From Escherichia phage vB_Eco_T-01, in the sequence record PQ438391.1: DNA of 64,000 nucleotides. The stretch is one strand, 5' to 3'. Numbering within the stretch: the first letter of the stretch is position 1; the number at the start of each line of letters is the position of its first letter. Shown piece after piece: positions 32,358 to 35,442 of this stretch. The notes below the pieces were generated by a model, which saw only the letters and a list, made by a program, of their open reading frames with translations, had not been told where the DNA came from and did not search any database. The position numbers and the translations under genes are program-made.

Positions 32358-32618
32358 ATGATTAACATCAATTCAAAATATTTAAATCGTCTAATAGATA
32401 GTATAAGGAAGCATACTAATAAGCAAGATAATCTTAATGTTATGGTAACAGGAGCTGAGCTCCTTCATAAGCTTTATCTTATAAGTGATACTATATTAGC
32501 AATTAAACGAATTGAAAAACAATCATATCACAGTAATACAGATACGGTAATTACACTAGATGAAAGTGTCTGTAAATTACTAATTAAATTTGAGGAAGCT
32601 ATTCGTGGAAATAACTAA
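32358..32618 (+). CDS. hypothetical protein
   Basis: 86-aa ORF. Confidence 0.4.
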   Translation: MININSKYLNRLIDSIRKHTNKQDNLNVMVTGAELLHKLYLISDTILAIKRIEKQSYHSNTDTVITLDESVCKLLIKFEEAIRGNN

Positions 32619-32850
32619 AGATCAGTTTTATCTTCTTCAGGATAAAGTTAGCGAAATTTATGAAATAGCTTATAGCAAAAATCGCAAAAATGTGAAAACT
32701 GAATCAGGCAAATTAATGCTTCAATTGGAAGAAATTGAACGAGATTTGATTGCGTTAGAATTCTTTTGTGGTGAAGTAAAAACTGTTACAATCAGTGATT
32801 ACATTTTAGGTGAAATTAGCCATCTCTATAAGGCGGTTATTAATGATTGA
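32605..32850 (+). CDS. hypothetical protein (tandem paralog of the next ORF)
   Basis: GTG at 32605 with GAGGAAG RBS; C-terminal similarity to the following ORF. Confidence 0.35.
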   Translation: MEITKDQFYLLQDKVSEIYEIAYSKNRKNVKTESGKLMLQLEEIERDLIALEFFCGEVKTVTISDYILGEISHLYKAVIND

Positions 32851-33085
32851 ATTAAGTTGGTGTCAGTTTAAATCTCTTATGACAAATGTTAAAGCTGTCA
32901 TTGAGAAAAATTCTGGTCCTGAAAATATTACTATTCGCGAAAAAGCTTTAAAGATAATATACAGTCTTGAAGAGATGCAAAAAGATATTGAATCTATGGC
33001 AAAATTTATTGATGAACCTATTAATAAAGTTTATATTCGAGACTATACTGTAGGCCAAATTCGCGATTTAGCGTGGAAAGTTTAA
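32843..33085 (+). CDS. hypothetical protein (tandem paralog)
   Basis: ATG at 32843 overlapping the previous stop (ATGATTGA). Confidence 0.35.
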   Translation: MIELSWCQFKSLMTNVKAVIEKNSGPENITIREKALKIIYSLEEMQKDIESMAKFIDEPINKVYIRDYTVGQIRDLAWKV

Positions 33086-33768
33086 TGTTTGATTTTATTA
33101 TAGATTTTGAAACAATGGGAAGTGGTGAAAAAGCAGCTGTTATTGATTTGGCTGTAATTGCTTTTGACCCTAATCCAGAAGTCGTTGAAACGTTTGATGA
33201 ATTAGTTTCACGTGGCATTAAAATCAAATTTGATTTAAAAAGCCAAAAAGGACATCGTCTTTTTACTAAAAGCACTATTGAATGGTGGAAAAATCAATCA
33301 CCTGAAGCTAGAAAAAATATTGCACCATCAGATGAAGATGTAAGCACTATCGATGGTATTGTAAAATTTAATGATTACATCAATGCACATAATATCGATC
33401 CTTGGAAATCTCAAGGCTGGTGCCGTGGAATGTCGTTTGATTTTCCAATTTTAGTCGATCTCATTCGCGATATTCAACGTTTTAATGGTGTTTCTGAGAA
33501 TGAGCTTGACACATTTAAGTTAGAACCATGTAAATTCTGGAATCAGCGTGATATTCGTACCAGAATTGAAGCACTTCTGCTTGTTCGTGATATGACCACA
33601 TGTCCTCTTCCAAAAGGAACTTTAGATGGATTCGTTGCACATGATTCTATTCATGACTGTGCGAAAGACATCCTGATGATGAAGTATGCTTTGCGATATG
33701 CTATGGGTCTTGAAGATGCTCCGTCAGAGGAAGAATGCGATCCTCTGTCTCTTCCAACAAAACGATAA
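33085..33768 (+). CDS. dexA: exonuclease A DexA (DEDD 3'-5' exonuclease)
   Basis: MFDFIIDFETMGSGEKAAVIDLAV... recognised as T4 DexA; ATG at 33085 (ORF-track start 33073 is GTG). Confidence 0.85.
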   Translation: MFDFIIDFETMGSGEKAAVIDLAVIAFDPNPEVVETFDELVSRGIKIKFDLKSQKGHRLFTKSTIEWWKNQSPEARKNIAPSDEDVSTIDGIVKFNDYINAHNIDPWKSQGWCRGMSFDFPILVDLIRDIQRFNGVSENELDTFKLEPCKFWNQRDIRTRIEALLLVRDMTTCPLPKGTLDGFVAHDSIHDCAKDILMMKYALRYAMGLEDAPSEEECDPLSLPTKR

Positions 33769-33774
33769 AAAGTT

Positions 33775-33804
33775 GTTTACTTCCTCGGTTAGTTGTGGTA
33801 CTAT
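33775..33804 (+). promoter_or_regulatory. T4-type early promoter (GTTTAC ... TGGTACTAT)
   Basis: 18-bp spacer. Confidence 0.55.
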
Positions 33805-33831
33805 AACACCATAGCTACTGAGGATAATAAA

Positions 33832-34335
33832 ATGAAAATTTATCGTGTTGAATCATCTTTTAGTATTCTTAATTGTGAAGATGCTATAACAATACGTCGA
33901 AATCTTTGTGTTCAAATAACGCCATACAGGAGTATAATAGATTCATGGAGCGAAGAGTGGTTATTACACGTAGGTTATGATAAACCTAATTTTATGCACC
34001 ATAGTAATGATAATAAAAGAATTCCTCTTCCGCGCGAAGACAAATTATTAGTTAAAAATGCTAATATAACAATTAATACTAACTTTGAGAAAGAAGAATA
34101 TGTAGGCGTAGATCATTATATTCCCGGATGGTTTATAGCTCTTTATCATTTTGCTTTTGCTAGTGAATATGATATGATGAGATGGTTCACACGAGAAGAG
34201 CGTGAAGAATTATCTTCTAAAGGATTTTATCTCGCTGTATACGAAGTGCCAGATGACCAAGTTATCATTGGCGGACATCAAGTAATGTTCCGCAAATCCC
34301 ATGCTGAACTTGTAGATTTTATTGAAATGAGATAA
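33832..34335 (+). CDS. hypothetical protein
   Basis: ATG at 33832 with GAGGATAATAA RBS, downstream of an early promoter; 167 aa. Confidence 0.45.
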   Translation: MKIYRVESSFSILNCEDAITIRRNLCVQITPYRSIIDSWSEEWLLHVGYDKPNFMHHSNDNKRIPLPREDKLLVKNANITINTNFEKEEYVGVDHYIPGWFIALYHFAFASEYDMMRWFTREEREELSSKGFYLAVYEVPDDQVIIGGHQVMFRKSHAELVDFIEMR

Positions 34336-34337
34336 TT

Positions 34338-34877
34338 ATGAAATTTAATTATAATCCTGAATACATACCAAATCCTATAGATAAAATATTTGATATGGAT
34401 ATAGCAAGCATGTACGGCACTCTTGTTAAACCACTGGAAATTAAGGAACCTACTATGACTACCGCTATTGAAATCGGTAAAACCTACAAACTGGTTGAAA
34501 CTGAAATTAAAACTACTGAACTAAATTTGGGTTATAAAGCATTGACTAATGCTTTTGGTGAAGGCGAGTTTGTGGTTAAAAGCTTTTCAAAAAGTAACTG
34601 GTATGATAAGAATAAAGCTTACGTGATTCGAGCACACCGTTTAGATAATGATGAAGTAATTAAAACTATAGTCTTTGAAGCAGAGTTCATCCTCTTTCAA
34701 GAATGCGATCCTACTGACCTTTTAACTCGTGCGGTAGCTATCAAGACTCCATTTATTTCGGTCTGTGGTTGGGTAACAGACCAGTGGATTGAAGATGGTG
34801 TTGAACTTCTGAACGTGGTTCATGCAGGCGATTTTAGCGTAGTACCTCGTAGTGCGGTGGTAGCTATTTTAAATTAA
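34338..34877 (+). CDS. hypothetical protein, paralog of MotB C-terminal domain
   Basis: 179-aa ORF; C-terminal CGWVTDQWIEDGVELLNVV closely parallels CGYITDQWVEDGVKLYNVV of the next gene. Confidence 0.5.
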   Translation: MKFNYNPEYIPNPIDKIFDMDIASMYGTLVKPLEIKEPTMTTAIEIGKTYKLVETEIKTTELNLGYKALTNAFGEGEFVVKSFSKSNWYDKNKAYVIRAHRLDNDEVIKTIVFEAEFILFQECDPTDLLTRAVAIKTPFISVCGWVTDQWIEDGVELLNVVHAGDFSVVPRSAVVAILN

Positions 34878-34879
34878 TA

Positions 34880-34909
34880 GTTTACAAACTCTTGGGACCA
34901 GAGTATAAT
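34880..34909 (+). promoter_or_regulatory. T4-type early promoter upstream of motB; -10 TATAAT lies in the loop of the GGGACC/GGTCCC inverted repeat (34894..34915)
   Basis: GTTTAC, 18-bp spacer, TATAAT. Confidence 0.55.
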
Positions 34910-34953
34910 GGTCCCGCGGAGTATAAAATCTTTTTAACAAGTGAGAGATAACT

Positions 34954-35442
34954 ATGATTATTAATATTGGTGAAATTGCTCGTGTATCTGATAAATCCCG
35001 TTCTAAAGCAGCAGGAAAATTGGTCGAAATTGTAAGCATTCAGCTTAAACATGGCGTTAAAGATGAAGATTCTGAAGTAAAAGTGCGTATTATTCCTAAA
35101 GATGGAAAGTCTAAACCTCAGTTTGGCTATGTTCGTGCGAAATTTCTTGAATCTGCGTTTTTGAAAGCTGTTCCCGCTAAAGGAATTGAAACGATTGATA
35201 CTTCGCATGTAGGTGTAGACTTTAAGTGGAAACTCGGTCAAGCTATTAAGTTCATTGCTCCTTGTGAATTTAAATTTATCAAAGATGATGGAAAGGCTGT
35301 TTATACTCGCGCTATGTGTGGATACATTACCGATCAATGGGTAGAAGATGGCGTTAAGTTGTACAACGTGGTATTTTTAGGAACATACAAAGTCATTCCT
35401 GAAAGTTGGATTAAACACTATAGCAATGCTCTCTATGCATAA
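34954..35442 (+). CDS. motB: MotB-like DNA-binding protein
   Basis: 162-aa ORF at the syntenic position; own early promoter. Confidence 0.6.
   Translation: MIINIGEIARVSDKSRSKAAGKLVEIVSIQLKHGVKDEDSEVKVRIIPKDGKSKPQFGYVRAKFLESAFLKAVPAKGIETIDTSHVGVDFKWKLGQAIKFIAPCEFKFIKDDGKAVYTRAMCGYITDQWVEDGVKLYNVVFLGTYKVIPESWIKHYSNALYA

Follow-up and report, generated by a model that had tools for sequence, protein, structure and literature searches.

In the 64 000-nucleotide stretch of Escherichia phage vB_Eco_T-01 that was analysed here (sequence record PQ438391.1; the window in the following is this whole stretch), the region from dda through dexA to motB, a non-essential part of a T4-like phage, holds two true paralog sets. 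One consists of dexA.2 and dexA.1, which stand side by side between dda and dexA; the other pairs motB with motB.1 in its long form, the product of which has 179 residues (MotB.1-long). The reading that both pairs are true paralogs, that local duplication together with cassette exchange gave rise to them and that they are already catalogued, is given a probability of about 85%. Both paralogies are known, that of MotB and MotB.1 from Son et al. (2021) (Viruses 13:84; PMC7827196) and from Pfam family PF17613, and that of DexA.1 and DexA.2 from PF26837 and phrog_1700; the phage is approximately 95% identical to many that have been sequenced, and the core finding re-derives relationships held in Pfam, in PHROGs and in the 2021 paper. 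Added here are the change of the dda–dexA spacer gene from one to two, or possibly three, copies within Tequatrovirus, the view of MotB.1 as a cassette-exchanged GoF-like N-terminal domain joined to a MotB-type C-terminal domain, and a charge argument suggesting that the shared domain is not the DNA-binding part.

Yersinia phage fPS-90 shares 96.3% identity with positions 32300–35500, and many Escherichia phages share 94–95%, with 602 phage records matching, and the window is that of a T4-like phage of the genus Tequatrovirus in which the T4 map is read on the opposite strand. Gene identities were assigned by comparison with the T4 and RB14 annotations. The four open reading frames (ORFs) singled out in an earlier reading of the letters alone (the sequence-only reading) are present and correspond to dexA.2, dexA.1, RB32ORF010c (the long form of MotB.1) and motB of T4/RB14. 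Smith–Waterman scores were compared with those of 2000 composition-preserving shuffles per pair. DexA.2 and DexA.1 scored 76, against 26.0 ± 4.9 for the shuffled sequences (z-score 10.1), and MotB.1-long and MotB scored 115, against 30.1 ± 4.9 (z-score 17.4); none of the 2000 shuffles equalled the observed score in either pair, and the control pairs, motB.2 with MotB and orf86 with MotB, stayed at the shuffle level. Both pairs are thus far above chance, and the proposal that they are local duplications is borne out: for the DexA pair, as a tandem duplication, by this score, by an intermediate in Dhakavirus and by membership of one Pfam family, and for MotB.1 and MotB, as a duplication with one shared domain and different N-terminal domains, by the same statistics, one common Pfam family and the behaviour of the N-terminal region as a cassette.

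The tandem genes between dda and dexA

By BLASTP, DexA.2 and DexA.1 are 27% identical (52% positives) over 75 of approximately 80 residues, with an E value of 3e-7, and a profile–profile comparison aligns 74 columns (E = 7.5e-6). The residues of the C-terminal pattern that had been pointed out from the sequence are indeed shared, but the likeness is not restricted to the C-terminus and extends over nearly the full length, and the D-to-F spacing is six rather than four, so that one gap is needed. As approximately 80-residue products of genes between dda and dexA, both proteins fit PF26837 (Phage_T4_Y00H_G), which is recorded for all 38 of 38 DexA.2 homologues, 33 of them full-length at 84–96% identity, and which in four contigs is listed for both dexA.2 and the adjoining dexA.1 gene; the assignment of the window proteins is indirect, through the records of these homologues, and is regarded as safe. 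A single profile, phrog_1700, spans both proteins one after the other, its length of 160 positions being owed to a fusion protein from phage ime09 (L008, JN202312.1, 2561–3040, minus strand), in which a one-base deletion (GGTTATTAATG to GGTT-TTAATG, at the junction corresponding to 32843–32850 of the window) fuses dexA.2 and dexA.1 into a 159-residue ORF annotated as 'dexA.1'. The fusion is a weak hint that the two proteins are able to work alongside each other.

The end of dexA.2 and the start of dexA.1 overlap by 8 nucleotides (ATGATTGA), and the stop codon of dexA.1 overlaps the start codon of dexA as TAATG; together with the single middle transcript that runs from dda.1 to dexA.1 in T4 (bioRxiv 10.1101/2024.04.04.588121), these overlaps indicate that the DexA copies are probably made together. 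T4 dexA.1 and dexA.2 (UniProt Y00G/Y00H) have the same place between dda and dexA and the same overlapping stop and start codons, and the window proteins are 88–89% (DexA.2) and 86% (DexA.1) identical to their T4 counterparts, whereas the upstream orf86 is absent from T4 but occurs in the window and in another 307 phage records.

The relatives were found to hold two, one or none of these genes. By tblastn, 533 phage records were counted for DexA.2 and 530 for DexA.1, with approximately 480–500 at Tequatrovirus-level identity. Dhakavirus AnYang has one gene between dda and dexA, the product of which has 43% identity with DexA.1 (E = 4e-18) and 34% with DexA.2 (E = 3e-12); Karamvirus CC31 has one 80-residue gene at this place, in which BLASTP found no similarity to DexA.1 or orf86, and Mosigvirus RB69 has no gene between dda and dexA. 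As other genera have one spacer gene or none, the duplication of DexA.2 and DexA.1 is specific to Tequatrovirus. DexA.1, which stands nearest to the gene found singly in other genera, is the conservative copy, and DexA.2 is the one that evolves faster. A search of BFVD returned small DexA-like proteins in many T4-like genera; given the CC31 counterpart without BLASTP similarity, these links are based solely on fold and on the place of the gene. When the DexA profile was run against 1.84 billion representative proteins, it gave only 12 matches: besides DexA.2, DexA.1 and the Dhakavirus type, there were fragments and chimeras and also three long proteins of repetitive sequence.

The upstream orf86, with tblastn matches in 308 phage records, every one at least 80% identical, is possibly a much more diverged third copy of the same family. 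It matches phrog_5263 over its full length (E = 3.4e-5), and DexA.2 matches that profile in the same register (E = 4.7e-8); a 30-residue stretch of orf86 matches the Dhakavirus spacer protein in register (E = 0.005). These are its only links to the family. It is rated as possible only because neither hhalign nor the search of 1.84 billion proteins connected it to the others: comparison of the orf86 family with the DexA.2 and DexA.1 profiles gave E values of 0.19 and 0.077, which are not significant and come from alignments of very low diversity, and orf86 was not among the proteins retrieved with the DexA profile. In Pfam, no match is recorded for orf86 or its homologues, to PF26837 or otherwise.

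The AlphaFold2 model of DexA.2 (predicted local distance difference test, pLDDT, of 93.3) has the order β1–α1–α2–β2–α3 and predicts with high confidence a bundle of three helices accompanied by a small sheet of two strands; no informative structural neighbours of this model were found. In the literature library searched, no paper was found that treats the paralogy of DexA.1 and DexA.2 or any function of either protein, the sole functional mention of DexA.2 being the covalent conjugation of cGAS to its Lys5 during T4 infection of a host carrying the cyclic oligonucleotide-based antiphage signalling system (CBASS) (PMC10097602). Lys5 is kept in the window protein (MEITKDQ...). RefSeq/GenBank records name DexA.2 'dextranase' and DexA.1 and DexA.2 'exonuclease'; both are 80-residue helical bundles without such domains, and the labels seem to derive from the gene name 'dexA.x'.

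The C-terminal domain common to MotB.1 and MotB

MotB.1-long and MotB are 56% identical (81% positives) over 32 residues by BLASTP (E = 2e-12), hhalign aligns 36 columns of the C-terminal domain alone (E = 6e-14), and the PHROG profiles widen the match to approximately 57 residues of MotB.1 and approximately 74 residues of MotB, that is to the whole C-terminal domain. The conserved block that had been quoted for the two proteins is therefore present, and their N-terminal halves differ as claimed, with no similarity detectable between them in the shuffle comparison (z-score 0.0). The product of motB.2 is unrelated in sequence despite its name (z-scores of −0.3 with MotB and 1.3 with MotB.1-long). 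Relative to MotB.1, the C-terminal domain of MotB contains an insertion of approximately 15 residues. At 35265–35321 within motB, which corresponds to this MotB-specific insertion, the DNA identity dips to 70% amid 95–98%; the sequence here is CEFKFIKDDGKAVY in the window and CEFNFIKDDGRVVY in T4, as against YEFEFTEGEEGVVN or YEFEFTEGEQPLPR in relatives, making it a small hypervariable patch.

In PF17613, which has a gathering score of 25 bits, MotB covers profile positions 1–162, whereas MotB.1-long covers positions 120–153 only and passes the cut-off with 34.3 bits. The homologues of MotB.1-long number 197, mostly of 179–180 residues, and all of those listed but one carry PF17613 in the precomputed hits. 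MotB.1-long matches phrog_2333 over its full length (E = 2.5e-78), a profile that T4 MotB.1 also hits (E = 1.7e-46), and cross-hits were seen for phrog_1700, phrog_2333 and phrog_1671 in the family assignment. Searched by sequence against the PDB, MotB had no match with an E value under 0.65. Encoded directly upstream of motB, with a MotB.1-like C-terminal domain and a non-KOW N-terminal domain, MotB.1-long belongs to the MotB.1 group; the KOW-type N-terminal domain with its SRSKAAGK patch that distinguishes MotB proper is not matched in it, and as its N-terminal domain has no similarity to that of MotB, it is a relative of MotB through the C-terminal domain only. This domain is 79–100% identical to those of MotB.1-type genes and 47–56% identical to that of MotB, with 47 invariant positions across the MotB.1 types.

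With the 60-residue C-terminal domain as a tblastn query, 1685 places in 780 phage records were found, usually two per genome and sometimes three (RB68) or one (T2 and CC31). Dhakavirus AnYang carries both a 182-residue MotB.1 and a 188-residue MotB, which places the duplication before the split of Tequatrovirus and Dhakavirus. In Son et al. (2021), MotB and MotB.1 are described as having a common C-terminal domain and different N-terminal domains, one of the two genes is suggested to be a duplicate of the other and phages with two to four copies are listed; 102 homologues are sorted there, with MotB as Category 1 and MotB.1-type proteins with two distinct N-terminal domains as Categories 2 and 4 (PMC7827196). 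MotB.1-long of the window is probably their Category 4.

The order motB.2, motB.1, early promoter and motB is the same in T4 and in the window, and the MotB proteins are 97% identical; MotB.1 differs, with the window allele being longer and having a 39-residue disordered extension and an N-terminal domain without BLASTP similarity to the T4 type, although the C-terminal domain and the flanks are 83–100% identical between the two types. The DNA of the window was aligned with that of a relative carrying the T4-type MotB.1 (L003). The identity is 93–100% across most of motB.2 and 95–98% across most of motB, whereas it is 25–55% over 34309–34784, a segment that takes in the N-terminal extension and domain and the beginning of the C-terminal domain, and it recovers within the conserved C-terminal core. 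From this block of low identity between flanks of high identity, it follows that the N-terminal region of MotB.1 has been exchanged as a cassette, the conserved C-terminal-domain sequence forming its right-hand edge.

The AlphaFold2 model of MotB.1-long has a pLDDT of 60, with residues 1–41 below 50. It contains a strand–helix–strands domain at residues 49–123 (strands at 49–52, 77–85, 94–101, 107–113 and 120–123 and a helix at 60–73; pLDDT of approximately 70–77) and an all-β C-terminal domain at residues 132–176. Foldseek searches with this model returned relatives of MotB.1 and MotB, a KOW-domain protein and eIF5A-type proteins with low template modelling (TM) scores, and T4 MotB.1 (P39415) with an E value of 6e-6. 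Kim et al. (2025) placed the N-terminal domain of T4 MotB.1 in a family whose fold is LSm-like, together with GoF and Frd.2 (PMC12152347). A bent five-stranded antiparallel β-sheet in the N-terminal domain characterises this family. The window encodes GoF and ORF005c, which both match phrog_622 (E = 1e-39 and 1e-30) and form a further paralog pair of the same region; ORF005c would be, from its sequence, an extra member of the GoF/MotB.1/Frd.2 family. The link of the window-type N-terminal domain to this family is weak, consisting of a match of ORF005c to the MotB.1 profile phrog_2333 (E = 0.0013), a pairwise z-score of 3.7 between ORF005c and the N-terminal domain of MotB.1-long and a model of moderate confidence; the z-score of the same domain with GoF itself is 0.6, and the N-terminal domains of MotB and MotB.1, MotB and GoF, and MotB.1 and GoF are all at the shuffle level.

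In the gap between MotB.1 and motB, a promoter-like site was the best in the scan, with 11 of 12 matches. The window, T4 and RB14 hardly differ in this gap (two differences in approximately 76 nucleotides), and some phage records carry a 'promoter' annotation in it; with an early-promoter-like site at this place, MotB.1 and motB are in different transcription units. A strong Shine–Dalgarno sequence (AAGGA) ahead of Met40 makes two start sites possible for MotB.1. The N-terminal extension contains the motif FDMDIA[SC][MI]YGTL[VI]KP[LI]E, which in the MotB.1 proteins of RB68 (L004, 5244–5753) and RB69 (L009, approximately 4540–4600) is found in the linker that joins the N-terminal to the C-terminal domain; it looks like a movable short linear motif. 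The extension is open across 39 codons in three diverged phages.

Charge separates the two proteins. MotB has an isoelectric point (pI) of 9.3 and a net charge of +7, mostly in its KOW-type N-terminal domain, and its basic SRSKAAGK patch, which is invariant in MotB and present in the window protein, is located in this unshared domain. MotB.1-long has a pI of 4.8 and a net charge of −8, of which its C-terminal domain contributes −4, and the shared core GW[VI]TDQW[IV]EDGV is acidic. T4 MotB is a tight, non-specific DNA binder that co-purifies with H-NS (PMC6070864, PMC7827196); as both the shared core and MotB.1-long are acidic, the shared module is unlikely to be the source of this binding, and the charge analysis argues against MotB-like DNA binding or H-NS co-purification by MotB.1-long.

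Possible functions and alternative explanations

How the copies pair and what the proteins do goes beyond the homology, the copy numbers, the mosaic structure, the folds and the charges, and the functional reading as a whole is put forward tentatively, with less than even confidence. dexA.2 and dexA.1, and possibly orf86, are tandem copies of one 80-residue gene that is single in other T4-like genera. Their product, a predicted small acidic-to-neutral three-helix bundle, may act by binding another protein; DexA.2 and DexA.1 may pair with each other, possibly as a heteromer. MotB.1-long and MotB have in common an old duplicated C-terminal β-domain that is 50–56% identical, to which each adds an N-terminal domain unrelated to that of the other: MotB has a basic barrel of KOW type, MotB.1 a small acidic one of putative GoF/LSm-like type. 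In MotB.1, this N-terminal part is swapped between phages as DNA up to the edge given by the conserved domain. The C-terminal domain may be a common structural or partner-binding module, with the activity set by the N-terminal domain; in MotB this would be the non-specific binding of DNA and an interplay with H-NS, in MotB.1 a different activity, perhaps concerned with RNA or protein.

Several points weigh against parts of this picture. The ime09 fusion is a single record and could be a sequencing error rather than a natural fusion; the status of orf86 as a third copy leans on one bridging profile, phrog_5263; and the model of MotB.1-long is of modest confidence, with its N-terminal fold and GoF link resting on weak scores. 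In addition, Son et al. (2021) hold either domain of MotB to be a possible DNA binder (PMC7827196), so that nucleic-acid binding by the shared domain is conceivable for MotB and MotB.1 alike, its charge notwithstanding.

Among the other explanations, a chance or compositional origin of the similarities between genes that are not homologous, through helical periodicity in DexA and a short β-motif in MotB, might be sought in the low identity of the DexA proteins and in the 32–36 residues to which direct comparisons of MotB.1-long and MotB are confined; it is counted as refuted, with a probability that is practically nil, by the shuffle comparisons and by the Dhakavirus intermediate that links both DexA proteins, and curated and clustered profiles also put each pair in one family. 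A more serious alternative, which is nevertheless considered unlikely, is that MotB.1 and MotB are whole-gene duplicates in which both N-terminal SH3-like barrels have diverged past recognition by sequence, with no foreign domain grafted. An SH3-like KOW barrel has been published for the N-terminal domain of MotB (PMC7827196) and an LSm/SH3-like barrel for that of MotB.1 (PMC12152347), the first strand is alike in a MAFFT alignment, eIF5A-type proteins are among the Foldseek matches, and Foldseek aligns the MotB.1-long model over 166–170 columns, with a probability of 1.0, with the KOW-domain protein and with a 163-residue protein of phage G9062, of MotB-like length and annotated solely as 'transcriptional regulator'. 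Yet the TM-scores of these full-length matches are low (0.24–0.29) and the model is of modest confidence, the N-terminal domains are without any sequence or profile signal to each other, the MotB.1 domain weakly signals the GoF/ORF005c family instead, and it is demonstrably exchanged between phages as a cassette.

The sequence-only reading had suggested that domain-swapped paralogs of a DNA-binding protein could bind different targets; MotB.1 would then be a second DNA binder, in which the shared C-terminal domain binds DNA and a different N-terminal domain picks the targets. The very strong conservation of the C-terminal domain, and the HHpred analysis by which Son et al. (2021) tie the C-terminal domain of MotB to cold-shock/OB-fold nucleic-acid-binding domains (PMC7827196), speak for this, but the acidity of MotB.1-long, with a C-terminal core rich in D/E, and the location of the basic patch of MotB in the domain that is not shared speak against it, and no DNA-binding data for MotB.1 are reported in PMC7827196 or PMC12152347; two DNA binders with different targets are thus doubtful and not favoured, at a low probability. 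It is somewhat less probable still that the paralogs are physical partners, with DexA.2 and DexA.1 (and perhaps orf86) forming a hetero-oligomer of three-helix bundles through coupled translation and MotB.1 pairing with MotB, or competing with it for a host partner, through the C-terminal domain; if so, a MotB directed to DNA and H-NS would be linked to a cassette-swapped N-terminal module of GoF/LSm-like, RNA-associated type.

MotB.1 in T4 and RB69, and the surrounding genes

MotB.1 of the T4 reference (119 residues, '13.8 kDa'; UniProt P39415) ends within the shared block, as one extra G is present there (GGATTGGAAG instead of GGATTGAAG; L002, NC_000866.4, 2798–2818, minus strand), inside GWVTDQWIEDG and equivalent to approximately 34790–34810 of the window. 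A 61-nucleotide query centred on this site has 100% identity only to AF158101.6 and NC_000866.4, which are one and the same reference sequence, whereas in 13 further records, from T4 and the near-identical phages T4T, RB55 and RB59, the alignment has a one-base gap, with direct confirmation in T4 strain 147. Because these 13 records do not have the extra base, the true T4 MotB.1 is most likely, as deduced from the sequences, a protein of 143 residues (16.2 kDa) with a complete MotB-type C-terminal domain, and peptides from the stretch EDGVELLNVVHAGEYSVVPR would mark the full-length protein of 16.2 kDa rather than 13.8 kDa. In Kim et al. (2025), motB.1 was made by gene synthesis and the T4 coordinates are cited from NC_000866.4 (PMC12152347); if the construct followed that record, the MotB.1 tested was without most of the conserved domain. 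To those who work on T4, the extra G matters more than the paralogy itself.

In RB69 (L009, NC_004928.1, 4377–4873, minus strand), the 132-residue motB.1 and the 29-residue ORF012c are one MotB.1 gene with two single-base insertions near the conserved core, ORF012c being what Son et al. (2021) count as Category 3; the breaks are either those of a real pseudogene or old sequencing errors. A real or programmed motB.1 frameshift common to T4 and RB69 was considered and rejected, as the 13 other records of T4 and its near-identical relatives are without the extra base and RB69 breaks elsewhere.

The features of the region are collected in Table 1. None of the six proteins searched matched anything in NCBIfam.

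Table 1. Features of the dda–dexA–motB region and the genes after it, in window coordinates.
Feature	Position (nt)	Strand	Assignment and remarks
dda	31032–32351		RB14/T4 annotation
orf86 (86 residues)	32358–32618	+	RB14ncORF015c homologue, phrog_4967; not in T4; stop overlaps dexA.2 start by 14 nt
dexA.2 (81 residues, GTG start)	32605–32850	+	PF26837; phrog_1700 positions 1–80
dexA.1 (80 residues)	32843–33085	+	PF26837 on neighbouring gene in four contigs; phrog_1700 positions 80–159
dexA, 3'–5' exonuclease A	33085–33768	+	PF16473 (E = 4.9e-22); T4/RB14 annotation; between the paralog sets, itself single
motB.2 (167 residues)	33832–34335	+	PF26820 (Phage_T4_Y00F) in relatives; left flank of variable cassette
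MotB.1 long form (179 residues)	34338–34877	+	RB14 'RB32ORF010c, similar to RB69ORF012c, motB'; phrog_2333, PF17613
MotB.1-long disordered N-terminal extension	34338–34454		residues 1–39
MotB.1-long small β-rich N-terminal domain			residues ~40–123
MotB.1-long MotB-type C-terminal domain	~34707–34874		residues ~124–179
Early-promoter-like site TTTACA-17-TATAAT	34881–34909	+	gap between MotB.1 and motB
motB (162 residues)	34954–35442	+	PF17613, 368 bits, full length; KOW-type basic N-terminal domain and C-terminal domain
goF	36039–36458		phrog_622; cef, goF and others come after motB
ORF005c (RB32ORF005c-like, 125 residues)	36634–37011		phrog_622; not in T4

Farther along the window, at approximately 50000–60000, the GC content is 0.38–0.41 with a negative GC skew, as against approximately 0.33–0.36 and a positive skew elsewhere, a shift that presumably marks genes encoded as a block on the opposite strand.

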